Source: Euglena gracilis (lineage: Eukaryota). From it: a stretch of 64,000 bases of DNA. Numbering within the stretch: position 1 is the first letter of the stretch; each line of letters opens with the position of its first letter. The notes beneath the pieces were generated by a model. That model searched no databases. It was not told the origin of the DNA and was given only the letters and a program-made list of their open reading frames with translations. Location: positions 34,829,703 to 34,893,702 of the forward strand of contig CP154954.1 in assembly GCA_039621445.1 (NCBI GenBank), written 5' to 3'. Position numbers and translations under genes: made by a program. Shown here in pieces: positions 19,473 through 62,701 of this stretch.

Positions 19473-19497
19473 ATTAGACGGGTTCCCTCTGCTACCA

Positions 19498-19830
19498 TGT
19501 ATACGTTGGTCGTCACCACCCGCCGTTGGACGGCCACAGGGCAGCTCATACTGCTTGCCGTGGCACGCCCTCAGGCGGGGAACTACACCCAAGGTCCGGC
19601 CAACCAGTGTCTCGTCCTTATGCGCAGTTACACGCGCCGGTCGATCCCCGCGGTATGCCCTCTGCCCGTACGGGATCGACCAGGACTCACACGGCGGGAC
19701 CTGGGTCTCGAACCCACGACCTCCCGCGTGTGAGCCCAGCACCTTACCGAATAAGCTACTCGAGCGATACTCGGCTTGGTACTACGCGCCGGCTACCAAC
19801 CTCCGTAGGATCTCCCGTCTGCCGCACACA
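19498..19830 (-). repeat. TRIM 5' LTR (tRNA-like segment at ~19692-19765)
   Basis: Direct repeat of 10111-10443, followed by a Met-i-type PBS. Confidence 0.93.
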
Positions 19831-20419
19831 GGGACCCACAGAGGCACTCTGCCAAAAATGGGGGAAAAAGGGACCCACAGTGGCCCTTTCATTGACCCAG
19901 TTCCAGGAGGAAAAGGGACCCACAGTGGCCCTTATGGAGGGAGGGGCAGGAACCCCTCCAACAATTATTCCTCAATTCCCAATGATTCAATCAAGGGGGG
20001 GACCCACAGAGGCCCCCCTATGGTATGTGAACCAACCACATCAACCTGGAGAAGACCAGATAGACCAAACAGGGGCATCAAGCCCTATGGTATGTCTTCC
20101 AACAACAAGATCATCCAGAGAGGTGAGCAGAGAGGGAGAGAGTGCATGCACATACCCCCAGAAAAAATTTCTTTTTCCAAGGGCCCAAGCCCTAGGGGAC
20201 CTAGGGGTGCAATGTCCAACACCCCCAACCCAGCCCCCCCAGAATCATCTTATCCAGAAAATAAATTCAATTGGGGAAAGAGGGGGAGACACCCCCCTCC
20301 ATCAAAGGTTGCAAAAAAGCCTAAAATGTCCAACACCCCCAGCCCAGCCCCCCCAAAATCATCTGATCCAAGAAATAAATTCCATGGAGGAAAAATGGGG
20401 AGACACCCCCCTCCATCAA

Positions 20420-21830: not shown

Positions 21831-22185
21831 TATTCCCTAGACCCCCAACTTTTTCAATGGCTGAGGCAGCAGTTCAAAAATTACATAAGCCTGAAAACAG
21901 ACCTTTTTGACTCACCCGGCAACAAAAAACTGCCACAACCTGTGGCCAGGTGGCCCCACTGGGAAGCCACAGCAGTGGATGCATTGCAATGTCCACTGGA
22001 CAACATGGGGGGCCTTTATGCAAATCCCCCCTGGTCTGTAATTCAAAAATTTCTCCCCAGATTAAGAAGGATTCCTCAAGCCAAAGTTTTGATGGTTACC
22101 CCATACTGGGATTCAGCCACATGGTGGCGCCAGTTAATAAAAATGAAAGTACCAGGGTCCCCCTGCCTGAAAATCACCACTTACA
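21830..22185 (+). CDS. DIRS Dam-like N6-adenine methyltransferase domain (C-terminus displaced to 34112, minus strand)
   Basis: DLFDSPGNKKL, DAL, LYANPPW, VTPYWDSATWW: the established DIRS1 MT domain. Confidence 0.9.
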
Positions 22186-25100
22186 ATTGGCGTGGGGAAC
22201 GCTGCGGAGCTGATTCGCTCCGTATGGTGTTGTGCTCCGGATCATTGACATCAGAGGATGGGGTCTCCCAGTCCTTGATCCAACTGTCGGTGTCTCCACG
22301 ACCTCAGCGGCGGAGCCTGACGCTACGCCTCCACCTGGTAGCGTTAGTTCTGCAGCCACGGCTGTGATACCAGTGACCACGGCGCCGAGTACACGGCCTC
22401 CTAATGAGGTGCGTGCTGCGGGGCTGGAATTTTCTTCGAGGATATCCTCGATGACCATGCCAGTCACCTCGGCGGGAGGCTCAGCCGTTGGGACAGGCGT
22501 AGCGGCCACAGGTATATTCCCTGCAGGTTCTTCGACTGGCCTAGGCTGTGCCGGAGCAGGGAGAGCAGCGTGGAGGATATCCTCCACGAACTCGCCTTCC
22601 TCCTGAGGGAGTTCTTGGTCTCCACCTACCGGTGGACAGACGGGAGCCGCCGCGGGGGCCGGGGAAACTGATCGTTCCCCTGCCGCTCGCACGGCAGAGA
22701 CGAAGGATACAGCCGTTCCTGTCCGAGGCGGCGGTGCTGCCTCCAGAATGGTGACGGAGGGGCTGCGTTTGCGTTCATCCCGCCGCGGAATCGCGGTGGT
22801 GTAAGCGACTGACGCCTCACGTCTCCTTAGCGCCAGAGGTTCATCCTCCGGGACGATGAAGGCGCGCAGATCTTGGGGCAAACGAGGATCGGCGGGGTAC
22901 CATCGGCATCCCTGAGCATCCGCCAGCCTGTAAAAGGCCAGCGTACTGCTACTGGCGCTGTTGGGCCAGGGTGGCGGCCATGATGGCTGCACCCAGGCGT
23001 TGGGAGGCCTTTTCGGGCACAGGAATCCGCTGTAACGCGTATCCTCTTAGACCTCGAGAAAGCCCTCCTCGAACTCCTGATACTCATGCCAGAATCAGCA
23101 TACACATGTCGAGGATGGCCTTCGGGTGCACCATCAACTGGCGGAGTACCTCCCTGTCGAGGGTACCGCCAAACTGTCGCCGTAAATGTTCTTTCAGGTT
23201 GATATCATCCAGGTTCCAGTTAGGGCGCAGGTCGGCGATGACCGGACGACGATAAGGACCCTCAATGTCCGGTAGCAAGCTTTCCATACCAGGCCTATCG
23301 TCCCGGGGTCATTGAGATGCAAATACACCTACATGACGTAGGTGGTCCAGGCTCGCCACCAGAACTGCTGCAGCATAAAAATATGCTGCTTGCGGACGCG
23401 ACGACTTCTGCGCTGGAGAACCGGGGCGTCGCGGCACACATGCAAAAGCATGCGGCGTCCCATCTCCAGACCCGGGTTATCCCGAGGCGGTGGAGGACTT
23501 CCGCGGACGCCGAATCCCCAGGAGTAGACAGGGAATTCCTGCTTACAGTAATTACAACAGAGGTCATACCTCTGTGGGTAAGCCAGGGAAACGCGCCGAA
23601 CGCGGAAGGTTGAGCCGTAATGGCTCACCAGCCACACCTGGAGGTTGTTGCACCACAACACCCCGATCAAGCGTTCGATGTCGGGCTTCAGTGGGTAGCA
23701 TTGCCACTGGACTCCGAGGGGTCCTATCGAATGAATACATTCGATGTTGGCCTTCAGCCTCCGAGCCAACACATGCTGGTCCCGGAATCCCAGTTGGTGC
23801 AGGTAACTGCGACCAGTGGAATCGGTGAAGAGACCCCAGTTTTGGCAGGGCCAACCAGATCTCCCAGAAACCTGGTTGGGCATCCATCAAGGGTCTGCCA
23901 CCTTCACCTTCGAAGGCGTACAGATCATTTCTGTAATGTAATTCTCTGACTTTGTTCTCGGTGTGGTGTAATACCACATCGATGACTGCTCGTGGAGGGG
24001 TGACGGGGCTGTTTCCTGCAACGTGGTAATCGTGCTGCATTCTCCAGCCTTCGTCCTCCAGCTCCTCCTTGAACCTGAGCATTTGCTCAAAGTCCGAGAG
24101 GACTTCCGCTGGTTCGTATTCCTCCTCACGTCCTGTACCCTTACCTTAACCCTCACCTTTGCCCTCACCCTTACCTTTGCCGGCCACGCCTGTGCCATCT
24201 CCTTGCCTTTGCCCCCAGCCTCTCCAGTGTCCTTCCCCGTCTGGCGAATACGGGTCGGGCGCTCGGTGCCGCAGGAGTCGGATCGGATCCTTCACATTCC
24301 ATCTCTGTTGAGGGACCTGGCCGATCCGCTGCACGTCGCGGTGATGCCGTGGCTGGGCGTTGGCTAGGAGCCTGGTGTGGGCTTGGCTTCGACGCAGGGG
24401 GTCGTGGCTCCATACCGGAGGGATCGGCGGTGGCATTGCGGCAACAGGACGAACCATCTCCCTCTGTGTCTCAGCCGGTGGTCGTCCACCCGTGGTATCC
24501 TGGCCAGCTTCCACCTGCATTGCCACACCGCCTTCCGCGTCCCGTGGGCTGGGTCGCCAGGGCTGTGGGGTAAGGTTCTCCGTAGCCCTGTCGCGCTTCA
24601 GAGTGGCGGGTAATACTGCCACACCTGTTGGGGGCTCACGGGGTAATACCAGGGTTGCCACCAGCAGCTGCGGCTGGTACGGATGGTATGGGGTGTATCC
24701 ACGGCCCTGAAGGGCAGCCAGAGAGGCGTAATACCTCGTCCGGTGCTCTTCAGATGCGAATACTGGCTCCTGCAGGAAGTGCCGAGCAAGCTCATCCTGC
24801 TCGGTTCTCGGAGGCGCCATGTGGTAGTAGGGAGTCTCCTGCCGACGGAGGATATCCCCGGTCTGGACAGGAGGTGCACTGGGCGGTCGGGCTGCCACAC
24901 GGTGGGGAGGTTCATCCTCCAACACTATGGGATCCACCTGCCGCCGTTGCTCAACGCCAGGGTCAGGGGCGACCGGCGATGCCTGTTGCATCCAGTGCGC
25001 AAACATGTGTTGGACGTATGCCTCAGGGGGCACGTCCGACTGTCCAGCAGGGACCACGCATGCGCCGCGCGGGTAATCCGCGTGCGTCGCGTACTGCGAG

Positions 25101-35106: not shown

Positions 35107-35310
35107 TCAATTGATTGTGCATGCAAGATCTATGTTATAGCGCTTGTTCCACAGCTTCCAATCCTGCTGGATATATCCAACAAAAGTTGATGCTGGCTCC
35201 CAAGTGTCCTCCTCTGGCCCATACCCTTTCCAGCGAACCTTCCAGTAGTGCACACCCCTGTCGACCTTGTGGTCTTTTATCTTGTCGACCACAAAGTAGT
35301 TCGTTTCAGG
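35107..35310 (-). CDS. Chromodomain at the integrase C-terminus
   Basis: YFVVDKIKDHK..YWKVRWKGYGPEEDTWEP. Confidence 0.92.
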   Translation of the reverse strand, partial: PETNYFVVDKIKDHKVDRGVHYWKVRWKGYGPEEDTWEPASTFVGYIQQDWKLWNKRYNIDLACTIN

Positions 35311-35336
35311 TAATCTGGAACGGGGCTTGAAATATA

Positions 35337-35687
35337 GGGGGTGTTCCCCCCGTGACCTCCCCGTGACCCCCCCGTGACCCTCCCGTGACCAGAACAAGGA
35401 CCCTTTTCGACGAAATTTTGTAGAAAATTTTGGCCGGTGATGACTAATTTGATAAAATTCTCAAGCAGATTCCTAATCCTGTGGCTTAAATTTTTCAAAT
35501 TTTGGCTTGGTGATTCCTAATTTGGTGACAAAATCCTAATTTTGGGTGTGGGGATTCCTAATTTGTGGAAATTTTTCCCAAAAATTAAGGCTCGGTGATT
35601 CCTAATTTTGCTACCAAAAACGTGGCGTTCTCCCCGTGACCCCCTTCGTGACCCCCCCCGTGACCCCCCGTGACCCGAACCACCCCC
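35337..35687. mobile_element. MITE inserted between integrase and chromodomain
   Basis: Ends GGGGGTGTTC / GAACCACCCCC; CCCCGTGACC and ATTCCTAAT internal repeats; interrupts AIPC|YFKP. Confidence 0.6.
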
Positions 35688-35689
35688 AT

Positions 35690-37480
35690 GGACAGGGGAT
35701 AGCTTTTCAGTCTGGGGGGCTTAGGTACGGTTTGAAGCCGTCCATATGGACGTCCTCAATCCCGTTGGGCAAGGCAACTTTATGTCGCCCGCTACTACCT
35801 AACCTCTCCAAAATTTTGCATGCGCCGAGCCAAAGAAGATCCGGCTTGGAAATTTGCTTTCGGGTGTGGTTATTCCGTACTCACACGTGGTGACCTGGAA
35901 TATACACAGGTGTGTTGTAGTTTTGTAAGAACGCTTTCCGTTGGTTGGAATTAATTTCTGTGATACGTGATTGGAGTGCATAGCGGAGTGATTCCACTTC
36001 TGCAAACCACGTTTCAAAGCCGACACTGCTTCGGGCGGGTCTGTTCGAGGGTATATCCCCTGTGGCCGGAGGGTCTCGTCCGAAAACAATTTTGTACGGT
36101 GAGTGTGGTAATACCAACCCTGGCAAGGTATTGATGTGAAATAAACACCAATGAAGAACGGATAACCAATTCTTACCCCAGTCAGTCAGTGAAATTGCGA
36201 AGCATATTCACAACGTATTTCACGGCTGCCTCGGCTCTACCATTGCCTTTCGGGCGTTATATAATGAAACAAAAATGCTGCTCAATGCCGAGTAAACCGC
36301 ACAAAGTTGTGAAAAACCACCAAGAGATCAAGTGATCTTGATCACTCAGGATTTCGTTCGGTAAACCCATTAAGCATATACATTTCTCCAGGAATATGGA
36401 TGCCAAAATTTGTGCTGTCAACCCTGCCTTCCGGCATGGAATGGCTACTATGTACCAACTCAGCCGACAGACGACAACAAAAACGTAATCGTAAATTTTT
36501 TCGTCTTGTCCTTTGCAAGGTTCATGTTCGAGAAAATCCATTCAGATGGACGTAAAAATGTCTGGTGGTACGGGTTCTAATACCAACCCCTGGCAGTATT
36601 GAGTGAAAAAACACCATGAAACAAAAAAAACGGAAAAAAAAAAAAAAAACATTAAAATGTCAAAAAAAATTAAAAAAACAAACACGAAAAACACAATTCC
36701 ACGCTGCCTTACACACTCTTCAAACCAATATAATGAAACAAAAAGCTGCCACATAAAAAAAAAACAAAGTTGTGAAAAACCACCAAGAAAAAATGATCGC
36801 GTTATCTAAAAACCAAAAAAAAATCCACAATATGGAAAAACCAAAAAAAAACTAACGCACAAAAGGAAAAAAAAAAAAAACAAAAAAAAAAAAAAAAAAA
36901 AAAAACAAAACAAAAAAAACCAAACAAAAAAAACAAAAGAAAAAAACTTTAAAATAAAAAAAAAAAAACAAAACCACAAAAAAAAAAAAAAACAAAAAAT
37001 CTTTTTCACCTAACCCACAAGAAACCAAAACCCTAAACAACCAAAAAAAAAAAAACCCACCGACAAAAACTCAAAAAATAAACACCAAAAAACATCGCAC
37101 ACCTACAAAAAAACCACCTCAGCAGAAAACCAACACAAAAAACAAAAAACAAAAAGTAAACCTCGCGTCCCCAGATCACCACAAAACAAAAATCGTAAAT
37201 CTTAAAGCACAGGGAAAAAAACTCCAAAAAAAAAGTCCATCGTACCAGGGGGGGTACGTCTGTGTGGTTTCGCAGCCTGACAAAATTGGCACCGTTGGGA
37301 AATTCGCAAACGGCGCGAATATAAATCTTTTTCACTCAGTGTTGTGCAATATCTGCGACCCACTAGTGAAAGAAATTCTGCGGCCCCAGGGTGACCTGGG
37401 TAAACAATATTTATAACCAGAAGCATTCCGGAAAATAAGTCACAATGGTGATGGAGAGTAATTCTCTCTGCATTCACCAT
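35690..37480 (-). pseudogene. Integrase (zinc finger HPG..CQFCQ; core MDF, SDQD), with an A-rich garbled duplicate at 36575-37235
   Basis: GHPG, CQFCQAAKP, MDFLE, VVCRLS, ILSDQDH, GKAE, SPYKIVFGRD. Confidence 0.85.
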
Positions 37481-37779
37481 TACGAAGTCTATTCGCAATG
37501 GTACTATATATTAGGTCACGCGAAAAATCACATTCACGTAAAAGTAGGGAGGTAGGAGTTTCCGTACGCGTAGTGAGACGGGGTCTGGCAGTGCGTCCAC
37601 GCCGGCGTCTTTCACACAGTGGTGAAAAGGCGATGATGCGATATCCCCGGGAAATAGGTAGTGAAGCAGGCATGTTGTGCGCAGCGTCGGATCGACGTGC
37701 AAACTCGTCAGCCTCAGTCAGTCGCATCACCCTCATCCGGGTTCCCAAGATAATACCAGGGGGCTCGGCTGAGAGGATC

Positions 37780-39150
37780 CGCAACGTTTTGCGTGTGACC
37801 TGTGGCATAGATAACCACCAGGTTAAACTGGCTCAAGAACTCATGCCATCGGCATCTTCTGCCAACTGATGACATGGCCTTGTTCAGGTCCTCGGTATAT
37901 CAGTGTTGAAGGCTCTCATGATCCGTCAACACGAGTATCTGGACCAAGCTGCCTGGCTATCCAGCTGCGGAATTGCTGTGGAATAAGCACAATGGGATAT
38001 GTCTCCTTTTCGCGAACGCTCCATTTAACCTGTCCTTACCCGTTGTCGCCCTGTAGCTTCCTGTTGAAGAAAGCCACAGGTCGGAGTTCATTCGCCGCAT
38101 TATGCTAGCTAAGAACCCCGTCAAGGGCGTAATCGCTGCTGTCGACTATCAGGACACATGGTTTGTATGAATCCGCGATATCGAGAACCACGTCCTCGAG
38201 GAGCAAGTCCTTGATTTTATTCACGGACTCACACATTTGCATTATCAGGTGTCCGATTTTTGAGTTGTCGGGTTAATGGTACCGCGATTGTTTGCCAAAT
38301 CTTTCATGTAATTCGGGTAATATTGAGCTAATCACCAAAATCCTTTTAAGTGCGTTAAGGTCTTAATGACCTCAGGAGTCCATTTCTTAATGGCCTCCAT
38401 ATTGCTGGGTGCGGCTTTACACTGCCAGTTGCTCAGGATGTGCCCGCAAAACTTAATAAATTCGCGAAACAGGTGCATTTTGGAACCCTTCACAAAATCA
38501 CATGCTTTTGGAACGCGGATAATAACGCCCGCACATCGCGATAATGCCGTTCAAGGATATCCTTGCCCGATTTCGTTTATGGTGGTTGGGTTCCCACCAG
38601 TGCATCATCGATGTATACCAGAGCAAACGGCAAATCACGCAAAACCCACTGGATCATGCGTTGATACATGACCGGGCCAATCTTCCCATGACTGGGTCCA
38701 TTGGTACACACCCTTGGATGTCACGAATGACGTGTACGTTGCGAATCAGGATGCAAATGCATCTGATGGACACCGTCTTCCAGAAAAAAGATTGACCACA
38801 ACCGGTTATCCGATCGTTTAGTGATCAAATCCTCGATCAGCGGTAACGGGAGGGTGTCATCCTTCATTTGGGAGTTCAGGTACCGGTAATCCAGCACCAG
38901 TCTCCACTTCTTCTGACCAGACTGGTCAGCGGGTTTGGGCACCACAAAACCTTGTGATGTCCACTCGTTCCTGGAAGGGATAATCCATTTCCGCTAGATG
39001 AGCTTCTCAATCATCTCGTTGGGAGCTTGTTCGCGTTCACACAAAAAACGGAATATTTTCGGGTGCATGAGCTTAGCGCCTTCCTTGAGCTCGATTTTGC
39101 AAACACCGAACGCCCGCCAGTCGCGGGGTCGATGTCGCAGGCGTAAACTG
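37780..39150 (-). pseudogene. Reverse transcriptase plus RNase H
   Basis: KWRLVLDYRYLN, LPLIEDL, VYIDD (~38605-38617), VDSSDYA, REKETY. Confidence 0.88.
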
Positions 39151-39363
39151 GGTTATCCAGTACATCATGGAATTCGCGAGTGATTCGTGAACAAATAGTC
39201 ATCTGACTTGGTGTGTTGGTCCGCACTCTTGATAACCGCAGAAATCTGTGTTGAGGGTGTGGCCTCCCCATTGGTACCAAGGCATCATGGCACACGCAAA
39301 ACGGATATTCCGAATGCGACAAAGAAACAAACGTGAAAAATGTATTCTTTAACAGCTGTAATA

Positions 39364-39730
39364 CTATACTGCAAAAATCCTCGAATAGTGGTTCATCAGA
39401 GGGTTAATCCCACCAATGAAAACACACACATACAATAGCTGCTGAACCCAATCCGCATTCGGATTGACGGGTATGATGAGAGCTCCTCGCGCTTCATCGC
39501 GGAGGATTTTCTGCACCCCATCCGGAAGAAGTTTTGGGGTAGGGTGCATCCACAGCACCGTATCACCCCAGAAATTTAGAAACGCGTTGGAATGTCACGA
39601 CCAATATCGCGAGAAGCGCGCATGCGCTTGTGATGAAAACGCATCAATTTCCAGCGACAAATCGAGGGAATCAGCCAACATCGCGATTTTGGAGAACGAT
39701 TCCTCCAAAATACGGTATTGGCCAAAATTA
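39364..39730 (-). pseudogene. Dam-like adenine methyltransferase domain between PR and RT
   Basis: Manual translation QYRILEESF..LEIDAFSSQAHARFSRYWS*HSNAFLNFWGDTVLWMHPTPKLLPDGVQKILRDEARGALIIP..ADW. Confidence 0.72.
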
Positions 39731-49999: not shown

Positions 50000-52225
50000 G
50001 CCCCCCCCAGGTGCCGTACGGCACTTGGCCCCGTTTCACCTCCCAGAGCTCCTAAAAATTGAGCTCACCTTCAAATAAAATCCAAAAGCAAAACAAAATT
50101 GAGCCTCAATGAAATTGTCTCACAAAGATTTTTGAAGCTCCCCCATTAAATTGACCTTCAATTTTTTGTGTGCACAATACCGAACCAACTCATGGCTAAA
50201 CCGATGAGTGAAATTTCCAATGGGTTCCCAGGTTTCTTCCCCCTCCTCATAACCAACCCACTTGGTGAAAAATTCCCACGTATCCCCCTTCCTACGGTGG
50301 GCCAAATTTTTCTCAACCTCTGATTCATCGGGCATTGCCTCCTCCTCTTTTTCTGTCCGTTTGAAAAAATACAAAGGAACTCCTTTGCCAAAAACTGGTG
50401 GTTCCTTATACTCCTTGAGAGAACTTCGGTGTGTTTTAATTTGCACACCTGGTTTGGTTTCCACAACGTAACTCCTCTCCCCCTCCCGAGCTTTGAAAAT
50501 ACCGGGACCAATACACCTCGAGTTTAATTTTTCACCCGAACCCTCGGGTCGTTTGTACCACACATGGGTTCCAATATTTAATGGTTCCTTTTCTCTTCAA
50601 CCTTGGTTAATCCGTTTGGCTTGGACCTCATGGGTGTGGTTTAAAACCTTTGCCACCGTTTCATCGATTAGCTTCATTCGACGAAAAAAATGTTGGGCAT
50701 CCCCACACACGTTAGAGGCTTGGTAAGGTATCCCCCCAAGGGGAGGTTCCCTACCGGTCATAATTTGGTATGGGCTAAAACCACCCTCACCCTTAACATC
50801 ATGAATCACATCCAAAGTTTGGGGTAGAGCTTCAACCCAATTCATTTTTCCGTCCACAAAGAGTTTCCTCAAAATCTCCATTACTTGTTGACCAGCCCTT
50901 TTCACCCGCCTGTTGACTTGGTGGTGGTAGGCTTGATAAAAAGCTTGCCGAATTCCCAAAAACGAACACATGGTTTGCAACCTTGTGTTCACGAAATGAC
51001 TCCCTTGGTCACTAGAAATGATTGAAGGAATCCGTAAAGGCCTCCAATGGTTGAGCATTGCCTTTGCCAATTTTGAACCCGTGAATCCTTTTTCTAAAAA
51101 TGGTATGGCCACGATCCAGCCGGAGTGCCGGTCAACACACACCGTCATAATATTGTAATTTTCTCCCTCATACTTTACCAATGGCGTTTTGAAAAGATCT
51201 AAGGCCACACTCACCATGGGTGCCAGTGGAATGGGTGTTGAATCTATGGGTCCCTTCAAAGTCTCCTCCCTTTAACTTGCTTGGCACGTGACACAATTTT
51301 TGGAACAACTTTCATTGAAAACACGTGCCCTTTTTTCATCAGCCCATGCGTACCGCAAAATGATGAAATTACACACTTTTTCCGGACCAACATGTCCCAA
51401 GACTTCATGAACCTCTTGTACAATGAATTCTTGAAAAGAAAGTGGGACACACAATTTCTCCTCAAAAAACGTTCGGTCCTTGTGAACTTTCACACCCTTT
51501 GGCCACTCACCGTCATTTTGAGTTGCAAGCCAAATTTCCTTCCAGGTGGGGCATTCGGTATACGCAACCACCCAATCCCTCTCCAAAACTGATTTTGTTA
51601 GCTTAGGGGTTGCACTTGGAGTTGGTGGGGCCCCACATCCTCCAGTTCCCCCCTCGGTAACTCATTAGTGGGAAGTTTCAGTTGGTCATCAAATTTCTCG
51701 CAGGGTCCACTCCATCCCAAAAGGTAACTCTCTTCTTACCCTTTTTCGAACCAAATTCCCTAGGCCCTTGTGAGTGAGCGTCTTCGGTGGTGTTTATTCC
51801 TCCCGGACCTTCTACACTCTCGGTACCCCTCCCTGACGCATCATCCACAAAATTTGGTGCCTCCACTTTTCCGCTGCGGGTTACCACCCCCCTTATCCAC
51901 AATTTACGAGCGTTAGGCTGATTTTTGACTTTGACCAACAAGCAATTTTTCTCATCTTCCCTCTCCTCTCTTATGAGCTCCTCCATTTCCCTCTTATCTT
52001 CGGCCGAACCATGTTTACTAATGTCCCTTAGGGCTTGCGAAGCGGTGTATGCCCACGGACTTAAAATGTCGGCAATGGTGTTTTCCTTCCCCGGAATATA
52101 CCCCACTGTCAAATCGTATTTTGAGAAAAATTGGTGACATCGTACCCTCCTCCCCACCGGTCCACTTGGGGTTTCGAGCACTTTTTTTGCACATGCCTGC
52201 AAACTTTGTTGATCGGTCAACGCAG
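50000..52225 (-). mobile_element. Family D 3' fragment (RNase H end, integrase, chromodomain), inverted relative to 60598-62790
   Basis: GKENTIADILS, HEVLGH..CVTCQ, SDQGSHF, KWVGYEEGEETWEP. Confidence 0.9.
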
Positions 52226-52725
52226 TTCATTGGACGAGTTATGTTGACTCAACACTCCGCCAACAGCATAGTCACTGCTGTCGACCTCCAGTACGTATTA
52301 CTTGTACGGGTCAGCAATGTCAAGTACAACATTGTCCAACATCAGTTGTTTGATTGTCGTTAGCGATTCTCGCATTATGTCATCCAATTGGCATCGTTGT
52401 ATTGTCAGGCGCGCGATTTTTGAGTTTTCGCGTCAGTAGTACCGCGATTTTCGCGAAATCCTTCATGTAAATCGCGTAGTACTGCGCTAAACCCAAAAAT
52501 CCTTTTAAATGGGTAATTGTTTTGATGTTTTCAGGTGTCCACTTCTCTATAGCTTCCACTTTACTTGGAGATGCTCTCCTTTGTCCGTTGTTAAGAATGT
52601 TTCCACAAAATTTTATCGTTTCGTGAAACAAATGCATTTTCGCACCTTTGACGAAAAGCAAATGTTTTTGAAGCGTTGTCAGCACGGAACGTATATCACG
52701 GTAGTGAATATCAAGAATATCACTA
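52226..52725 (-). pseudogene. RT/RNase H fragment of a family-C-like Gypsy
   Basis: LFVKGAKMHLF, HLKGFLGLAQYY, DIADPY..VDSSDYAVGGVLSQ, similar to 38100-38520. Confidence 0.8.
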
Positions 52726-52926
52726 CCCGAATTTTCAAGTGGGGGTGAACCTGTACTTTTACTGGAGGACAGATTTTCAGTTAACCGTGGATTAACGGCC
52801 AGCGAGGGGATGTTAATTTGGACACAGCCAGCCACTGAAAATTTAACATCAGCAGTTTTAATGACTGAATCTTCCAGTCTGGCCGTAGGGGGGCCAGCCG
52901 GGCTGTTAAATCAAGTAGCGTCTAAC

Positions 52927-55813
52927 ATGGAAATCAGCGGGGATGAGGAAATAGAACCAGAATTGTCTGCTTTTCAGCCCCCTGTTTTTGGACCACAGCC
53001 CCCCGAATCAAATTGTCAAATACTGGGGGGGTGATGATTCTGACTCATGGGACGAATGGGCATATGGGGTGGATTGCTATTTGCAGGAATTGAGCCGAAG
53101 TATAACAAATTGGGAAAGCATAAGTCCCCCCCAGGTTGTAATTGAAAATCGGCTGGAAAATTTTGAGAAGAACTTGGCTGAAAAAAATGCTCGAGCACAG
53201 ACAGAAGTTTTGCATTTCATCCATGACAATTTGGAGAAACAAACTGCTGAAATGTGCAGCCAGTTTGAGCACGAAAAGCAAAAAATTCAGGAACAAATTC
53301 AGCAATCAGTCAGCCAATTTATTTTACGATGCCAGGAGCGGGGGAGTGCTGTTGAAAACGTTGCAAATTTCCACAAACAACTTTTGGGGATTGAAGTTCA
53401 AAGGCAGATCAAAGGAAAATTTCATGATTTTGAGAAAAAAGTTACGAGATTTTCTGGGCAACGAGCTGGCACAACTTGAGAGCCGTGGAAACAATGTCCA
53501 AAACAAATTGTTTTCACCAGATGGGTTGGTCGAGCAAGTTGGAATTTGTTTACATTCTGTCGAGGGAATAAAGTCAGATTTTCAGAAAGAATTTTTGGCA
53601 ATTCGACAAGCAAATCGTGAGCTATGCTATGGGGTGGACAGAAAATTTGCTGACGTCGCTGCTGGGCTGAAAATGGTGGGGGAGGAATCAAAATCAAGTT
53701 TTGGAACCTTAACACAGGAAATTCAGCAGCGATTTGAAGCAATTAAAAACGACAGCAAAGCTCTGGGGGGCAGTATCACAGCAATTGAGAAATTTCTGGG
53801 AAGGCAGGAGGTGCCTTGGGATAAGGTGGTTGAAATGCTGGGAAAATCAGAAGCAGCAATTCAACTGGAAATTCGGAGGGAAATGGCAACCCAGGTCAGA
53901 AAAATGATGGAAAGTATGATGGTGCAAATGATGAATGAACAGCTGAGGCAAAACCAAAAGGAAGAACACTTTGAAAAATTGCAAACTGACATTGAAAATC
54001 GAGTGAAACAGCAATTTTTTCACAGTTTTGATGAACATGCAGACAGATTTTCAGCGTGAAAAGAGTCAACGGGAGGGTTTGCAAAAACTGTGTCAAACTT
54101 TGCAGACTCGTTTGGATTTCATTGAGGGGAGGGTTCAGGAAATTTCAGCCAAAAAAACACAACAAATTGACCCCAGGGCACCTGAAGTGGCCCAGCCCAA
54201 GACAGTAAATCAGCCGAATTCTGGGATTTTTGGCATTAAGGGGGTGTCACCGACTCAATCATATAGGATTTTCGGGATTAAGGGGGTAACCCCAATGATG
54301 CCATGTGAAATCTGGGATGTTGATCTGGGCGGGTGCACACCATCAAGTAGTTCACAGGGGGGTGCATTTGCAATTAATCAGGTCAGTGGCATTTGTGCCA
54401 TTGGGGGGGCACCACAGCGACCACCAGTCATAAGTGTTGGTAACCCAGCAGTGCAGCATGTCTTGAGAAATTTGACTGCACCAAAATGTTCAGGGAAATC
54501 TCAAGTTTGGCAGCAATTTTCAGAGGATTGGCAAGCATTTTCACGGAAACTGAATTCTGCAGGGGAGGAAGTGAGTGAAGATTTGAAAGTTGCTCTTTTG
54601 GAGGATTGTCTTGACGAAACGAGCAAAAAAGTTCTGAAGCTCCATCTCAAGGAAGGGGGGATCAATTTTAATGCCAGGTGGGGTCACCTGGAAATGACAC
54701 TTTCACAGATTCAGGAATCTGGGGCAAGGCCAAATTGGCAGCAGGTGAGCCTTTTTAATATGGGCAAAGTTACCCTTGAGCACTGGCTTGAATTTCAGGC
54801 TAATTTCAAGATGGCCAAATGAAAGGTTAAGCATGCCGGGGAGTGGGAAGCAAAACGACTTTTGTTGCAGAAACTTCCCCCATTCATCCTAAAATGGGTT
54901 TCAGATGAGGAGGAATGGAGGCTGAATTATCAGCCGACTTTACGCCTAAAGGTGCCAGGGAATAGGAATTCAGAATCGGTTGCAGAAATACTGGGGAGAA
55001 TACTTGGGAAAAGACCCACAAAAGTGTCGGAAATTCACGAGGGGGAATTTGAAATCATTTTCCCTGACATTTCTGCCTATGAAAAAGTCAAGAGGTTTCA
55101 TGGCAAAGAGTTTGACGATTCAAACGTTTTGTTTCAGGTTCAGGAAATTGAACCGGTTTTGACCACCGAGGACATTTTCAACCTCGTGAAAAAAGAATTG
55201 GCACTCAGAAACAAACATGATGCCTTACAAAGTTCTGCTTCATCCCCAGGCTATCAAGGGTTTAGGCGTTCAAGGTCGGTGGGTGCTGAAAATCGAGGGG
55301 GGAGGCAATCGGGGAGTCGGAAGAGTTCACCTGGGTCGACCCCGGGTAGGACAACGACACCCCCCCCGCCAGAAGCAAATCACAAATCAGCGAAACAGCA
55401 AAACCTGATCAATTTGTTGCGGTTTCATCTTCAAATGTGCAGCCATCAAGCAATTCTTCAAGGCTTTCAACGGTGGAGAACCCACCCAATGTGCAAAGAC
55501 CGGTGGTGGGGGGGCACAATGGATCCCACCCCCCTCACAACCAACAATGCCGTATGTTGCTAGACAAGCCCCGTGGAACAGAAACAATTTTCAGCCGTAT
55601 GGCAAGGGCAGCCAATGGAAAGGGGGGAATAATTCCCAGGGACATGGGGCAAATAACTCCCAATGGTATGGGGGTAACCAACAGGGGTACAAGGGGGAGG
55701 GTGGTAAGGGAAGGGGGAGAGGCAAAGGATTTGACCAGAATTTCGGTTCCAAAGTGGGGAAGGGCAATAACAATAACCCAACGCCAGCGGTGGCCCACCA
55801 TATTCGTCATTAG
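52927..55813 (+). pseudogene. gag: Family D gag (coiled-coil, capsid-like, GKG/RG-rich tail)
   Basis: PKCSGKSQVWQQFSEDWQAF capsid-type motif; tail GKGRGRGKG; ends TAG at 55811-55813. Confidence 0.7.
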
Positions 55814-56227
55814 GGACGCCGGGGTCATGTTTTTGAGGGGTTTACATCCTCGTGCATAGAAACCCCCAAGGCATTTTGCATAACCCGACCACGTCTTCAC
55901 ATGGAGAATATTACCGTGGTGGAGAATGTGTGTCTTTGTCTTCCAATCCCTTCACCTCAGGTTCAAAATCAGGCAATGAAGAGTGTGCAATGTCGAAGAC
56001 GAGCAACGGCGCCATTTCAATGATTTCAATGAGTTCATCCTCGACAGCCAACTCGAGAAGACAAGTGGCCTTGAGCCTTGATGCCTTGAGTGGCCAATGG
56101 CAGCCCGTGTCGAGGAAGTGCAAACCGTGGACCAGGTGTGCAAGCCAGGAGAGTGCACGGCCCAGGTTCAACAATTATTATGGTTTTATTGAGCGAAAGA
56201 CTATCCATCAAAGGTGTGGGAAGTTGG

Positions 56228-56840
56228 AAAGTTCCCAAGGCGTTGGATTTGTTTTCGGGAAAAGGGTCCGTTGGGAGGTGTTTGGAGGAAAACGGGTAAA
56301 AGGTGGTATCCTTGGATGTGAACCCAAAATTTCACCCAACCCACGTTACGGATATTCTGGAGTGGAATTATCGAAAATACCCCGTGGATAGTTTCAAGTC
56401 ATAACGGCAAGTGTGCCTTGCACGGAGTATAGCCGTGCTAAGACGGTGGGAGAAAGAAAGTTGGAATGGGCAGACCAACTTGTGACAAAAACGTTGGAAA
56501 TTGTGGAATATTTTCAGCCCAAATAATGGTGGATTGAAAATCCCCGAACGTGACTTTTGCCAAAAGGCATTGTGTGCAAAGTTTGAATTTCATTGATGTG
56601 GATTATTGCCAATTTTCAGATTGAGGATATCAAAAACCCACTCCTATTTGGGGGAGGCAAAATTTGTTGAGTTTGAAGGACAAACGTTGTGATGGGAAGA
56701 CCTGCCCCCATTTGATTGTGAGTGAGGGGGGTGGTTTTGGTTCACAAAGAACAATTGGGAGGAAACGGAATGAGGGTGAGCACTCAACACAAATGGAGAG
56801 TACCTGAGAAGTTGGTCAAGTACCTTCTTTCGGCCCTTGA
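56228..56840 (+). pseudogene. C5-cytosine DNA methyltransferase domain
   Basis: Across frames: ALDLFSGKGS (motif I), VVSLD (II), DILEWNY (III), ITASVPCTEYS (IV, PC at 56416-56421), WWIENP (VI), VDYCQF..GYQKPT.IW (VII-VIII), WRVPEKLV (C-terminal). Confidence 0.88.
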
Positions 56841-56869
56841 TTTTAAGGAGGAGAAATTTTCCTTCAAAC

Positions 56870-57265
56870 GTGAGGACTATGCCGTTCGAAATTCATTTGT
56901 GCAAATGATTGAGGAGAATTTTCAAAGGAGGGCCGAGGTGGATTGTTTTGCTTCTACCCCAAATTCTCAGTGCACGTCATATTTGACCGAGAAGGAAAAT
57001 GCTTTGGCTGTACCACGGGGAGGGGGAGGCACGGTTTGGTTGAACCCTCCCTGGTCATTGTGGCCAAAGGTGGCAAAGAAATTGCAAAAGGACCCTTGTG
57101 ATGCCATTTGCATTTTACCCGATTGGAACAGAGGTTGGGTGAGGGAACTTGTTCGGAAGGCATCAAAAAAGTTGTCTTTTCCACCCAGAACCAAAGCTTT
57201 TTGAGGTCGATGGGAAACCAGTGGGGGGTGTGAGGTGGGGAGTTTGGGCCTTGTTGATAGAGGGT
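56870..57265 (+). CDS. Dam-like N6-adenine DNA methyltransferase domain (one frameshift near 57200)
   Basis: EDYAV..EVDCFASTPNSQC..ENAL..VWLNPPW (57043-57054)..ICILPDW..W..RWGVWA. Confidence 0.88.
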
Positions 57266-57369
57266 AATAAGCCCCCCGCCAACACTAGCAACCACAAGAA
57301 ACCAAAGGTGGTACATTTGAAATCACGGATGGATAAAAAGAGATACCCACGCACAGGGATTGAGAAATT

Positions 57370-57790
57370 TTCTAAGAACCGACAACTTCTGATCCGGACA
57401 AGGGTTGTTTTGGGAAACGGGGAGGAACGACGTATGGATATTTTGGTGGACACCGGTGCCGAAGCTAACCTCATAAGGCAAGGTTTAGTGAGTGACCACC
57501 TAATGTATTCAGCCGAACACCCCTTAAGGTTTGAAACCGCCGACGGTCAAGCCTTGTGTGGTGGGGGGAGGTGCACTAAGGTGATTATGAAATTGCAAGG
57601 GGAGGTGAGTGAGAACACCCCACCCACAGATTGTGAGTATGATGGGGAATTTTATGAAGCTAACATCAAAGTGGACGCAATTTTGTCATACCCGTGGCTT
57701 GTGCAAACAAAAATTGGAATTTTTCCACATCATCGTGCTTTGGTAGTGGAGGAACCCGAGTTGACATTTTTGTTCGGTGTGAGAGATCAT
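57370..57790 (+). CDS. pro: Aspartic protease
   Basis: DILVDTGAEANLI, FETADG, DAILSYPWL. Confidence 0.9.
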
Positions 57791-58570
57791 AGGAGAAAAC
57801 GACAAGGAAAGGTCCCTAACACACTACCCCAAAGGGGGGGTGTGACAAATTTGGAAAAGTTTGGTTTCCAACTTCCTATGGAGGGTTTTGATCAAAGAGA
57901 AGCCTTGGACAACCACTCGCTCAAAATTTTGGACAAGAATTTGGAGAATGCAAATGAACACCCCCTACCTATTCGCAAAATGATCATTGCAAGGGAGGGG
58001 GAGGGGAAAAATGAAACGGAATCCAAAGAGGAAGAGAGAATAAGGGAGCTGAGAGAGGAGATTTTTGGAAGGTATGGTGGAACCGAATTTCGGTCTAAGG
58101 TACAACCCGACCCACCCGTAAGAGGACCATATGGTTATGCATTCATACCTTTGCAAGAAGGAGCGCGGCCCACCCGACAAAAACCATTTTTCATGCACGG
58201 GGAACGAGAAGAAGCTTTGTAAAAAATCACTCAAGATTGGATCGATATGAAATTCATCGAGCCAGCCACAACAAAAAAATCAGAATGGCTCTCACAAACT
58301 TTCCCCGTGCCCAAAAAGTCAGCCGATTTTCCTTGGAGGGGGGTTGTTGACATGAGGGGACCCAACAGCCAATCCCGTAGATGCAACTACCCTCTTCCGA
58401 AAATCGAAGACATCCTGGTGAAGCATGGCGCAAACCAAATGTTCTCCATTTTGGACTTAAAACAAGATTTCCACCAACTGCCACTTCACCCGGATAGTAG
58501 GCCTATAACTTGCTCCTTCACACCAAAGGGTCTTTACCAATGGAGGGTGAATGTAATGGGGTTAACTAAC

Positions 58571-59800
58571 AAAGGTTCGAAATTTTGGTAATTTTTCATT
58601 TCAATTGAAAAATTCGAAAAATTGGAATTTTCTGAAAATTTCAAATTTCGCGGAACGCGAATCTGGGTATTCCTAATTCATCGGGAAATGATTTTTGTGG
58701 ACTGTGCAGACAACTCTAAGATGCCAGCGGGATGCAGGAGCATGTGGTAAATTTGCCAATTCTTTTAGTGAATGTACATTTTTCTGTGTTGCAGACCTCA
58801 CGGCAAGAAATTACTCAAGTCTATCACGCTTGAAACGAACTTATTGGAAGGAGATTGGTAATCTGGACCTGAGCATGTCCCTGCTAAACTGCTCAGTTTG
58901 TATTACGGCCAACAACGTGTGTGTTTTCTGATTCCTGTTGCTGTTCCTGTTTGCTTTTCAATGGCAAAGAACTGGCCAGTTTTGGGCCAGATTTGGTGTC
59001 CAGTTTTCGGCCGAATGTGCTAGCCAGTTTTGGGCAGAAGTGCTGGCCAGTTTTGGGCCACATGCTGCCGGTTTTGGGCCTGATTGGTGGCCAGTTTTGG
59101 GCCACAGTTTTGGGCAGAAGCGCTGGCCAGTTTTGGGCCAGATTGGTGGCCAGTTTTGGGCCACACGTGCTGGCCACTTTTGGGCAGGCTGGCAGTTTTC
59201 GGCCACATGCCGGCCAGTTTTGGGCCACATGCTGGCCAGTTTTGAGCCAGATATAGAGAACGTTGGCGTACGGGCCAAATTTTCCGGGCCCTTTTTTGAA
59301 AATCCTGCCTCAAAAATTTCAAAATCTCCTCTTTTCCATCATCTTGCAAACAAAACCTGCCACTTTTTTCTGGCCGTTTTCAGGTTTGGCACCAGTTTTT
59401 TCGGCTTTAAGTCCCCCCCCCCCCCGGTACGGGGTGGGGTTATCTGGGGGACGGGGTTGGATTTTTGTTTATTTCATCGGGAGGGTTTCTGCCGAGTAAA
59501 GGTGGACTTCTGCAACAGCCGGGGGGCCGGCAAAAATAATCTTTTTTTGTCACCGACAGGATTTTCCGCAGACGGAAGGCAAAATTCATCTGAATTACCT
59601 CTCGATGGTGTTTTTCTGTCTTCGAGTACCTTGAAAATGCCGTTATCCTTGGAAGGACTTTGGCCGGCGGCGAAAAAAACACATCCCTGTTGCAGTGCTT
59701 CACCCTGTGGAAATTTTGGAAATTTTCCTCCCGAAAAATTCGAATAATTCAACCTGGAAAAATTCGAATTATTCGAAGCGGAAAAATACGCCGAACCCTG
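58571..59800. mobile_element. Non-autonomous hAT-type element inside RT
   Basis: 8-bp TSD TAACTAAC (58563-58570, 59801-59808); ends AAAGGTTCG / CGAACCCTG; AATTCGAA subterminal repeats. Confidence 0.88.
58970..59252. repeat. GGCCAGTTTTGGGCCA minisatellite (~22-bp period)
   Basis: About 13 degenerate copies. Confidence 0.85.
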
Positions 59801-61239
59801 TAACTAACGCCTCACAACAATTCCAACAAATGATGGATGACCGTTTAGCACCCGTAAGGGATATTGCTACCCCATACATTGATGACACTTTGGTAGGGAC
59901 CACCGTCGGGGAGGGGGAGGATCTCCTCGAGGCACACAAAAGGAATTTGTGTAGGGTGTTGGATTTACTCGCCGAGGAAATTTTTGTAGTGGACCCAAAA
60001 AAAGCGGAATTACTCATCAAAGAAGTGGAATCTTGTGGCCAGATTTTGGGGCATGGCATGCGTCGGCCGGCCACCGGCAAATTACGTGCCACTGAAAAAT
60101 GGGAGGTTTCAACAACCATAACGGCCTTAAGGGCTTTCCTCGGCTTCACAAATTATTACAACACCTACATACACATGTATGCTCAAGTTGCGGCACCTTT
60201 GCAAGATAAGTTAAAGGTGTCTAGGGAGGAAGGCAAGAAAGGGAGCAAAAAATGGGATGAATTCGGGGAGGTTGAACACAAAGCATTTGAGGAGTTAAAG
60301 AAACGGTTGTGTTCCGGATTAATTCTTCAAAGGGTAAACCCCGATAAACCCTATGCTTTGAGAGGTGATGCGAGTGGGTATGCCGTAGGAGCAACTTTAG
60401 AACAACTCAAAGAAGGAAACGGTACGCCCAAGCCCCAAGATATTTTGGACAATAAAACGGTGCCTGTTGCTTTTATGTCCCGAAAGCTCGGGACATAAGG
60501 GCAAAGAGAATGGACCCCCCGGGAATTGGAGACATATGCCATAATTTTGGCACTCCAAAAATGGGAAAGTTGGATTGGTCTCCAACCCATTTTGGTGTTG
60601 ACGGATCACCAAAGTTTGGAGGCATGGGCAAAAAAAGTGCTCGACACCCCAAGTGGACCGGTGGGGAGGAGGGCACGATGGCATCAAATTTTCTCAAAAT
60701 ACGATTTGACAGTGGGGTATATTCCGGGGAAGGAAAACACCATTGCCGATATTTTAAGTCGGTGGGCATACCCCGCTTCGCAAGCTCTAAGAGACATTAG
60801 TAAACATGGTCCGGCCGAAGATAAGAGGGAAGTGGAGGAGCTCATAAGAGAGGAGAGGGAAGATGAGAAAAATTGCTTGTTGGTCAAAGTCAAAAATCAG
60901 CCTAACGCTCGTAATTTGTGGATAAGGGGGGTGGTAACCCGCAGCGGAAAAGTGGAGGCACCCAACGTTGTGGATGATGCATCAGGGAGAGGAACCGAGA
61001 GTGTAGAAAGTCCGGGAGGAATAAACACCACCGAAGACGCTCACTCACAAGGGCCTAGGGAATTTGGTTCGAAAAAGGGTAAGAAGAGAGTTACCTTTTG
61101 GGATGGAGTGGACCCTGCATGAAATTTGGTGACCAACCCAAAACTTCCGACTAATGAGTTACCGAGGGGGGGAACTGGAGGTGGTGGGGCCCCACCAACT
61201 CCAAGTGCAACCCCTAAGCTAACAAAATCAGTTTTGGAG

Positions 61240-62701
61240 AGAGATTGGGTGGTTGCATATACCGAATGCCCCACTTGGAGGGAAATTTGGCAAGCAACGC
61301 CAGAAAATGGCGAGTGGCCAAAGGGTGTGAAAGTGCACAAAAGACAAATGCTTCCGGAAGAGAAGTTGTGCGTTCCACTGGGTTTCAAGAAATGATCATC
61401 CTTAAAAACCACAAATTCCTTGGACATGTAGGTCCGGAAAAGGTGTAGAGACACGTCAATTTGAGGTATGCATGGGCTGATGAAAAGAAGGCAAAAGTTT
61501 TCACCGACAGTTGTAGCAAAAATTGCACAACATGTCAAGCAAGCTCGAGGGGGGAGACATTGAAAGGACCCGTTGATTCAACACCCATACCACCCGCACA
61601 CATGGTAAGTGTGGCAATCGATCTTTTCAAAATGCCGAAGGTTGTACGAGGAGGGGGAGTACAACACAATGGCTGTTTGTGTGGACCGACATTCCGGCTG
61701 GTTTGTAGCCATACCATGTTTTGATAAGGGACTAACGGGTGCAAAGTTGGCCAAGGAAATGCCTAAGTTCCAATGGAAACCTTTTCGGGTACCCTCAATA
61801 ATTTCAAGTGACCAAGGGAGCCATTTTGTCAACACATGGTGGCAAACCATGTGTTCACTCATGGGGATTAGACAAGCATTTTCCCGAGCTTACCACCACC
61901 AAGCGAATGGGAGGGTGGAAAGAGCCGGTCAACAAATTATGGAAGTCCTCCGATAATTGTTTGTGCAGGAAAAAACGAATTGGGTGGAAGGTCTTCCCCA
62001 AGTTTTGGATCGTATTCATGACAACAAGGAGGAGAGTGGTTTTAGTCCTTACGACAGTTTGTTCGGAAGGGATAGACCCATTGGGGGGATACCCTATGAA
62101 CCAACAAAGGAGTGTGAGGACGCTCAAAGAGCCGAATGAGGGAGATGGATGAGAAAGTTGCAAAAGTTCTCAACCACACACATTGGGTTCAGGCGAGTTG
62201 GTCAACCAAGGGAGGAGGGAGTTGGTACCCTTAAAATTAGGAACCCAAGTGTGGTATAGCAGACCCGAAGGATCCGGCGAAAAATTGGATTCCAGATGGA
62301 TTGGACCTGGGATTATCAAAGCCCGGGAGCGGGAGAGGAGTTACCTTATTGAAAATAAGCCCGGGGTGGAAATTAAGACTCACCGTAGTTTCCTTAAGGA
62401 GTACAAAGAACCTGAAGTTTTTGGTGAGGGGGTTCCTTTGTTCTTTTTCAAAAGAACCGAAAAAGAGGAAGAAGCAATGCCTGCTGAGTGAGAGGTGGAA
62501 AAAATTATCAATCATTGCAAGAGGGGGGGAACCTGGGAGTTCCTCACAAAATGGGTTGGATATAATGATGGGGAGGAAACTTGGGAGCCGGTGGGAAATT
62601 TTATATACCGGTTTAGTGAGGAGTTGGTAAGGTATTGCTCGAAGAAAAATCTAGGGGTCGATTTGATGTCGGAATTAAAAAAATCTTTGAAACCCTGGTG
62701 A
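61240..62701 (+). pseudogene. Integrase plus chromodomain
   Basis: HKFLGH..CTTCQ, IDLF, SDQGSHF, YHHQANGRVER, WIGP, KWVGYNDGEETWEP. Confidence 0.93.

Follow-up and report, generated by a model that had tools for sequence, protein, structure and literature searches.

The 64,000-nucleotide stretch of Euglena gracilis DNA analysed here (assembly GCA_039621445.1, contig CP154954.1, positions 34,829,703 to 34,893,702 of the forward strand; called the window below, with positions counted from its first letter) carries at 55811-57790 two DNA methyltransferase domains that lie ahead of the protease of a retroelement. With a probability of about 0.8 we take this segment to be the 5′ part of the pol gene of a decayed Ty3/Gypsy chromovirus-like long terminal repeat (LTR) retrotransposon of the 'EpiLTR' kind. 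The pol of this family is read in one frame and comprises a Ser/Thr-rich leader, a C5-cytosine DNA methyltransferase (DNMT, ~200 aa), a truncated Dam domain (~130 aa), a protease (PR), a reverse transcriptase (RT), an RNase H (RH), an integrase (IN) and a chromodomain. An earlier reading of the bare sequence, referred to here as the original prediction, had recognized the two methyltransferase domains by a set of short motifs. Every one of these motifs is present on the + strand where it had been placed, as seen in a three-frame translation of 55800-57400 and a motif scan, and both the C5 and the Dam-type domain are real and collinear ahead of PR-RT-RH-IN-chromodomain. The parts of the element are listed below; P0004 and P0001 are two relatives with a complete pol.

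54007..55563, + strand: putative gag, two open reading frames (ORFs) in one frame with a stop (54820-54822) between them, named by position only
55837..56188, + strand: Ser/Thr-rich pol leader upstream of the DNMT, part of ORF 55837-56391, in a frame that differs from that of the DNMT in the window copy
56234..56860, + strand: compact C5-cytosine DNA methyltransferase in four frame segments (motifs, Pfam, alignment to relatives)
56863..57204, + strand: Dam-type (PF05869) N6-adenine methyltransferase-like domain, open in the window copy (VDCFAS, NPPW; Pfam)
57143..58222, + strand: aspartic protease ORF and linker to the RT, with DTGA at 57449-57460 (sub-threshold Pfam matches)
58295..60045, + strand: reverse transcriptase with YIDD at 59875-59886, split by an insertion (tblastn of P0004 and P0001)
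58571..59808, no strand assigned: insertion of ~1.23 kb splitting the RT, private to the window copy, with an 8-bp direct duplication (58563-58570 / 59801-59808)
60270..60700, + strand: RNase H (Pfam positions in relatives, mapped by tblastn)
61390..62130, + strand: integrase, zinc-binding part and DDE core, with HHQANG at 61894-61911
62492..62701, + strand: C-terminal chromodomain with WEFLTKWVGY at 62534-62563 (66% in the alignment to P0004)

Assignment of the element

The order PR-RT-RNase H-integrase, with an integrase of the DDE type and a chromodomain C-terminal to it, is that of the Ty3/Gypsy chromoviruses, and the polyprotein profile matches the Ty3 Gag-Pol (7q5b) with an E value of 3.5e-14. 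Dam, DNMT and chromodomain, the combination that marks an EpiLTR, occur within single frames in P0004 and P0001 and are collinear but broken in the window copy. The integrase profile also matches the integrases of prototype foamy virus (PFV) and human immunodeficiency virus (HIV), while that of the chromodomain matches the chromodomains of HP1, CBX and CDY; in the window copy a stop (62489-62491) occupies the position of the first aromatic residue of the chromodomain in relatives. The protease was called from its DTGA motif, its position and two sub-threshold Pfam matches (E 0.012 and 0.018). Leaders of 70-170 aa precede the DNMT in the relatives P0001 and P0003 as well. The element is not a DIRS, since a DDE integrase core (rve) and a zinc-binding domain are present; this identity was considered and rejected on finding a DDE integrase in place of a tyrosine recombinase.

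A broken copy of a family with an intact frame

The window copy is dead. As had been noted from the sequence, it is interrupted by stops and changes of frame: the methyltransferase module of ~1 kb contains four in-frame stops (56297-56299, 56524-56526, 56551-56553 and 56622-56624) and changes frame near 56380-56400, 56561, 56735 and 57193, with a fifth change just upstream near 56188. The C5 domain is thereby spread over four segments. Taking frames as the coordinate modulo 3, the first (frame 2, 56234-56401) holds LDLFSGKGS, the second (frame 1, 56401-56561) SVPCTEYS and IENP, the third (frame 0, 56562-56735) VDYCQ, GYQKPT and CDGKTC, and the fourth, again in frame 1 from 56737, RVPEKLV; this last frame is open onward through the Dam domain to 57204. 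Further downstream the RT is split by an insertion with 23-24-nt tandem repeats at 58954-59252 and short, imperfectly inverted ends, which looks like a small non-autonomous DNA transposon. It is absent from other copies, in which the loose ends of contigs at 58566-58570 continue with sequence from window position 59809.

The relatives of the element retain the frame that the window copy has lost. When longer proteins were searched with the Dam ORF, six of 328 candidates matched. Dam scored above the Pfam cut-off in all six and the DNA_methylase family PF00145 in five, the sixth, P0001, reaching 19.1 bits. P0004 (1763 aa) and P0001 (1804 aa) each consist of one open frame with the order DNMT-Dam-PR-RT-RH-IN-chromodomain. 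In P0004 the Pfam positions are 15-116 for DNMT, 227-289 for Dam, 699-864 for RT, 940-1082 for RNase H, 1314-1488 for the integrase and 1689-1728 for the chromodomain (PF00385, 37.5 bits). Both proteins align collinearly with 56207-62695 of the window at 47-65% identity, with one hole at 58586-59799, and the four window pieces tile their DNMT-Dam region without gap or overlap. The in-frame fusion of the methyltransferases to pol, which had been proposed from a broken copy, is thus found intact in these two relatives. Compared with each other, P0004 and P0001 are 63% identical in the DNMT, 63% in Dam and 62% in the protease, 43-48% in the linkers and 83-85% in RT and RNase H.

Other copies of the family were examined as contigs of four public sequencing runs (at least three studies) that could be placed on 55800-58590 at 90% identity or more; the runs contributed 1679, 363, 68 and 28 of them. 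One-base length differences from the window occur in contigs at all five frame changes. At 56188 the difference is present in all contigs; in run X1 it is found in all contigs at 56735 and in about half at 56561 and 57193, and at 56379 it is seen in a minority of X1 contigs and nearly all of those from X2. Among the positions listed, all or nearly all contigs have another letter at the stops near 56299/56300 and 56624, which are two of the four. One contig of 854 nt corresponds to 56410-57264 and leads from motif IV of the DNMT through Dam into the protease ORF. From these differences the breaks appear to be private to the window copy or to a minority of copies, and the family as a whole would read DNMT-Dam-PR in one frame. 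A one-off insertion of the methyltransferase module, which had been named as the finding that would undo the fusion, is ruled out: contigs of other copies bridge the module and six relatives carry both DNMT and Dam. In the window copy neither the DNMT nor the Dam domain is bordered by a duplication or by the end of an element.

The family was present in 19 runs from 12 studies, of which 18 runs came from one organism and one from a second. Contig depths were summed over contigs and cannot be read as copy numbers. In the one run that is certain to be RNA, a leaf-litter metatranscriptome, the family made up a small share at low depth.

The cytosine methyltransferase

The diagnostic motifs of the C5 domain are these:

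56243-56269, + strand: LDLFSGKGS (motif I)
56410-56433, + strand: SVPCTEYS (motif IV, PCTEYS)
56533-56544, + strand: IENP (motif VI, ENP)
56598-56612, + strand: VDYCQ
56625-56642, + strand: GYQKPT (motif VIII-like, QKPT(P))

They are accompanied by a cysteine cluster, CDGKTC, and by a motif X-like RVPEKLV. Taken piece by piece, the broken window copy gives weak profile matches. The 64-aa piece 56401-56592, which spans motifs IV-VI, matched PF00145 with an E value of 5.5e-4 (19.9 bits, just short of the cut-off, 22); for the piece with motif I there was a weak match to the D12 methylases (E 0.092, Pfam), and the third piece had no Pfam match. The relatives score 25.3-28.9 bits against the same cut-off and 59 of the 76 family members match PF00145. 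With Dam above cut-off in the window itself and PF00145 above cut-off in relatives, the expected profile matches to methyltransferases were obtained.

Across 76 aligned DNMTs, neither the catalytic Cys of the PC motif (C74) nor the Glu of ENP (E113) varies. P73, D39 (the Asp of the S-adenosylmethionine site), R149 (the Arg of motif VIII) and a Pro of motif X are kept in at least 90% of them. An AlphaFold2 model of P0004 residues 1-356 had a mean pLDDT (predicted local distance difference test) of 82.9, with values above 90 over DNMT residues 11-210, and this part matched the catalytic domains of DNMT3A/B/C, DNMT1 and DIM2 with a Foldseek probability of 1.00 (E ~3e-9). The DNMT fold is thus predicted, with high confidence, to be complete.

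The original prediction had likened the domain to small viral or prokaryotic enzymes rather than to DNMT1 or DNMT3, and the comparison holds in so far as the domain is compact. Outside retroelements the sequences closest to it are viral proteins of ~200 aa, and no solved DNMT1 or DNMT3 is close in sequence, the matches to DNMT1 among solved structures being marginal (E 0.05). The nearest clusters in a protein atlas were likewise small viral C5 methylases, at 0.87-0.88, a value under the level rated reliable.

At the place usually taken by the target-recognition domain we observed a Cys-Cys-Cys-His pattern (P0004 residues 137, 164, 169 and ~182; ~56604-56740 in the window). The Cys of DYCQ and the two Cys of CDxxxC are invariant or nearly so in the 76 sequences, and the His that follows does not vary among the four closest relatives. 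Judged from this conservation, the cluster may bind zinc in a miniature recognition module.

The Dam-type domain

Two motifs mark the adenine methyltransferase-like domain:

56938-56955, + strand: VDCFAS
57043-57054, + strand: NPPW

The ORF at 56722-57204, which also carries FKREDYAV, matched PF05869 with an E value of 9.3e-10 (38.9 bits against a cut-off of 28.1, Pfam), and the six relatives reached 38.6-49.4 bits. All 13 sequences of an alignment share the N and the second P of NPPW.

Layouts and relatives of the compact DNMT

Searched with HMMER against 1.84 billion representative proteins, the DNMT part of P0004 had 3130 matches at E<=1e-3, 1447 at E<=1e-10 and 196 at E<=1e-30. Six of nine long matches that were scanned contain an RT and/or an integrase, and the position of the DNMT among these domains varies: it stands before the RT in P0051, P0022 and P0073, after Dam in P0047, and after integrase and chromodomain in P0139 from Cymbomonas tetramitiformis. 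Dam accompanies the DNMT in only four of the 76 close sequences, so the tandem of the two is restricted to the nearest clade.

A scan of metagenomes found 367 stretches, of which 80 were kept and the P0004 domains mapped onto them; the same scan with P0003 alone gave no matches. Most of the kept stretches (73 of 80) contain the DNMT only. A second dual layout, Dam-PR-DNMT, appeared in L020-L023, continuing into RT in L020 and L023 and also into RNase H in L020. Here the DNMT lies between protease and RT, and the four DNMTs form a clade of their own (support 97). P0047, with its DNMT after Dam, is grouped with this second layout. L018 has the order PR-DNMT-RT-RH-IN. In L017 and L027 the DNMT is followed by the protease with no Dam between them, and L027 goes on into RT-RH-IN-chromodomain, with 68-73% identity to P0004 in its RT and RNase H. 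These two elements imply that Dam was gained or lost among close relatives.

Several matches are free-standing DNMTs of ~200 aa. P0127 lies on a 58.6-kb contig of IMG/VR, and relatives of it on contigs of up to 182 kb. The capsid family of the nucleocytoplasmic large DNA viruses (NCLDV) was found in four of the five viral records L001-L005 (E 1e-49 to 1e-55) and a T4-type terminase in none of the five; given this capsid family, the records are giant viruses of eukaryotes. One giant-virus record, of 182 kb, has inverted terminal repeats and is rated complete. In L001 the DNMT gene is ~2.7 kb from a gene for the small subunit of ribonucleotide reductase and ~2.9 kb from a homing-endonuclease gene. 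The enzymes of this group (P0127 and L001-L005) share ~41% identity over the 200-aa domain (E 8e-37) and the same compact build, lacking a large target-recognition domain, with the DNMT of the window family; unlike the latter, which is fused to pol, they are free-standing viral genes. Phage enzymes are further removed, with at most 40% identity.

Trees were calculated with FastTree for all 215 segments and, in a quick run, with IQ-TREE for 57 rows, which were the labelled rows and those unlabelled rows less than 50% identical to any kept row. The latter run left out the near-duplicates L004, L005 and L007, one long-branch row, P0008 and most members of the Cymbomonas cluster. The DNMTs of the DNMT-Dam-PR layout form one clade (support 91 with FastTree and 99 with IQ-TREE), as do the Cymbomonas group and the giant-virus group, each with 99-100. 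All labelled groups fall into one ingroup (99), apart from one unlabelled row and the phage-like outgroup (98), with the order inside the ingroup unresolved. The tree does not settle the direction of any transfer between retrotransposons and giant viruses.

Relation to known elements

To the author of the original prediction no element with a dual layout was known. That statement is out of date: a bioRxiv preprint of May 2026 (10.64898/2026.05.21.726589), the only description of this type of design that we found in the literature, gives the name EpiLTRs to LTR elements with DAM, DNMT and chromodomain in E. gracilis and Cymbomonas tetramitiformis. The design of the window element is therefore already in print, as a preprint. 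According to the parts of it that were accessible, only two of 880 genomes and transcriptomes contain the design, LTR retrotransposons captured Dam domains from DIRS elements at least four times, and the EpiLTR DNMT is placed as sister to DNMT4, as a distinct acquisition (10.64898/2026.05.21.726589).

The E. gracilis EpiLTRs, as described in the accessible text, resemble the window element in that a Dam-like domain, a C5 DNMT and a chromodomain occur in a pol of LTR type, and the same genome also holds Dam-bearing DIRS and Dam-LTR elements, as the window does. The CpG depletion of the window and the occurrence of the family in runs of mostly one organism (18 of 19) also fit this picture of E. 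gracilis. No domain order is stated there for Euglena, and the window element may belong to the very family described or be a new member of the kind. The Cymbomonas EpiLTR (KAK3250676.1, which is P0139) has a DNMT of the same compact type, with 47% identity to that of P0004 (E 2.6e-35), shares its strongly supported ingroup (99) and, like the window family, has a chromovirus-like pol with a chromodomain. It differs in that its DNMT is at the 3′ end of pol, after the integrase chromodomain, which is also the layout given for this alga in the preprint (10.64898/2026.05.21.726589), whereas in the window family DNMT and Dam are at the 5′ end before the protease.

Other retroelements share single parts of the design. 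The truncated Dam of DIRS elements is of the same PF05869 type, with D-x-F-A and NPPW motifs, but these elements have a tyrosine recombinase and carry Dam after RNase H, whereas the window element has a DDE integrase and a chromodomain, with Dam upstream of the protease. Dnmt3-type DNMTs are described in Symbiodinium DIRS and LINE and in Klebsormidium Gypsy elements (PMC5890265). KnitGypsy-Dnmt3 (Klebsormidium nitens), SymbioDIRS-Dnmt3 and SymbioLINE-DNMT are alike in having a C5 DNMT in the pol frame, for which the available part of that article reports purifying selection, and SymbioDIRS DNMTs are described there as capable of de novo CG methylation in yeast (PMC5890265). Unlike the DNMT of the window family, these are Dnmt3-type or orphan enzymes with no Dam partner. 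Orphan DNMTs of viral origin are also described in eukaryotes, in the part of the source that was accessible (PMC12344493).

What the window contributes beyond the published design is a stated order of domains, in which DNMT and Dam precede the protease, and evidence from independent runs that other copies of the family keep the frame. It further adds two leads, the second dual layout (Dam-PR-DNMT) in uncultured organisms and the close DNMT relatives in giant-virus genomes, neither of which is mentioned in the accessible text of the preprint (10.64898/2026.05.21.726589).

What the two domains might do

The original prediction had suggested that the element could write 5-methylcytosine and N6-methyladenine on its cDNA inside the particle, as a self-marking or camouflage system. 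We propose the following scheme. Both methyltransferases would be made as the N-terminal part of Pol and be cut free by the adjoining protease. Once released they could methylate the DNA of the element itself, either new cDNA or a fresh insertion. CG methylation would make a new copy resemble bulk host DNA, for which methylation is the default state in a heavily methylated genome, and N6-methyladenine (6mA) would mimic the mark of active host promoters. The chromodomain of the integrase would in turn steer insertion into chromatin marked by methyl-lysine. That both enzymes act on the element's own DNA is put forward tentatively, as something that might well turn out otherwise. A still more speculative idea, which we regard as doubtful, is that DNMT and Dam form a self-contained 'epigenetic writer cassette' that stamps 5-methylcytosine (5mC) at CG sites together with 6mA, that such cassettes were assembled repeatedly (in at least three orders, DNMT-Dam-PR, Dam-PR-DNMT and IN-chromodomain-DNMT) and that the compact C5 part, which has no large target-recognition domain, is common to giant viruses of protists. 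In that case the enzyme would have been exchanged between giant viruses and retrotransposons. Two writers of DNA marks and a reader of histone marks in one mobile element make up an unusually complete toolkit for chromatin manipulation. Such an element makes it testable whether transposons set their own epigenetic state, a point that has been in print since May 2026.

A number of observations weigh against this interpretation, either as regards the nature of the element or the activity of its enzymes. The window copy is unable to make the protein and would act at most through its family. The ORFs at 54007-55563 match no Pfam family at E<=1 except for a chance-level coiled-coil match. A pair of LTRs was not found by any of three methods, and no direct repeat links sequence before 54 kb to sequence at 62.7-64.0 kb; the 3′ repeat may lie beyond the window and the 5′ side adjoins another element. 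A primer-binding site was not found for the window copy either. Transcription of the family rests on runs whose RNA label was guessed (X16 and alike), and the accessible text of the preprint gives LTR expression in E. gracilis as low or undetectable (10.64898/2026.05.21.726589). As to the DNMT, PF00145 is matched over profile positions 2-113 of 324 only, the region for target recognition consists of ~45 residues with conserved Cys/His as against a large domain in classical enzymes, and the window copy has a Pro where at least 90% of the relatives have the Arg of motif VIII. The Dam match is not full-length: of the 169 profile positions it covers 16-73 in the window and 12-120 at most in relatives. 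A model of Dam alone was poor (pLDDT 64.9) and had no Foldseek match (best E 0.87), a result that is uninformative rather than negative. Few sequences cover Dam and the separate model is without a match, so the Dam call rests on the Pfam profile and the motifs. Finally, in the preprint as far as accessible, eukaryotic Dams are described as devoid of CD-1 and TR-1, two prokaryotic sub-domains, and as causing no rise of 6mA in dam-deficient E. coli (10.64898/2026.05.21.726589).

The last points, together with the very short region that replaces the target-recognition domain, also speak for the best surviving alternative, which we consider somewhat unlikely. According to it, the domains, though conserved, leave the DNA of the element unmethylated, and one or both may not be DNA methyltransferases in vivo; they might serve in DNA or RNA binding, act on RNA or RNA:DNA hybrids only, or work in trans on the chromatin of the host around insertions, thereby shaping its methylome. 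Further in its favour, the DNMTs of KnitGypsy-Dnmt3 and SymbioLINE are reported, in the available part of the source, to have given no methylation in yeast (PMC5890265). However, relatives with 40-65% identity retain the motifs PC, ENP and NPPW, whose importance is confined to catalysis, and the predicted DNMT fold is complete, with high confidence. Moreover, insertions of DAM-LTRs are stated in the accessible preprint text to be 6mA-methylated more often than those of other LTRs, including in E. gracilis (10.64898/2026.05.21.726589). These points argue against the alternative.

A nesting or assembly accident, in which a Dam fragment of DIRS type and a DNMT gene unrelated to it came to lie inside a Gypsy element in the window copy only, might be suspected in a window that is pieced together from fragments of retroelements, among them a DIRS-like element and a further LTR element with Dam; the preprint, in its accessible part, also gives a caution about nested insertions and chimeric elements in E. 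gracilis (10.64898/2026.05.21.726589). We nevertheless regard it as very improbable. It is already contradicted by the six independent relatives (47-65% identity) that keep the DNMT beside Dam, two of them in complete open pol frames, by the contigs from four runs and at least three studies that bridge the junctions, and by the single clade formed by the DNMTs of this layout (91, 99), and no flanking duplication or element end is seen. That the module is instead a host-derived or domesticated gene cluster which merely adjoins a retroelement, for which the missing LTRs in the window are the only argument, is hardly credible in view of the continuous frame with PR-RT-RH-IN in relatives, the many diverged contigs per run that cover the stretch and a window copy decayed in the manner of a repeat.

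Surroundings of the element

The rest of the window looks like a nest of retroelements. No tRNA or Rfam match was obtained in the 64 kb, and 20 further long ORFs had retroelement or chance-level family matches only, with no host gene among them. The other elements recognized are:

50123..52226, - strand: inverted partial copy of the dual-methyltransferase element (RH-IN-chromodomain), head-to-head with it, 80% identical in DNA to 60597-62689
~35110-39700, - strand: Dam-bearing LTR-type element with no DNMT; a degenerate Dam-like region (39433-39693) is followed by RT, RNase H, integrase and chromodomain
19255-22400, + strand: DIRS-like RT-RNase H-Dam element, with Dam at 21750-22142 (DLFDS, NPPW)
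14414-18985, - strand: retroelement remnant with a protease-like region (14414-14707) and a CCHC zinc-knuckle ORF (14897-15706)

The inverted partial copy reaches 93% DNA identity over 52000-52221 and is uninformative on the methyltransferases, since it is truncated before that region. An RT fragment at 52419-52730 which adjoins it has 38-48% protein identity to the EpiLTR-type family of the window; judged by this divergence in sequence, the fragment suggests a chimeric or different element. Within the Dam-bearing LTR-type element there is a phenylalanine-rich low-complexity stretch (T-rich in DNA) at ~36.5-37.3 kb, and the long open frame of the retroelement remnant (15707-18985, 1092 aa) gave a coiled-coil-like match only. 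The DIRS-like element shows a strong CpG depletion, with an observed/expected ratio of 0.38. For the dual-methyltransferase element this ratio is 0.58 and for the whole window 0.72, where TG (1.16) and CA (1.18) are in excess and TpA stands at 0.50; the depletion of CpG fits a CG-methylated host.

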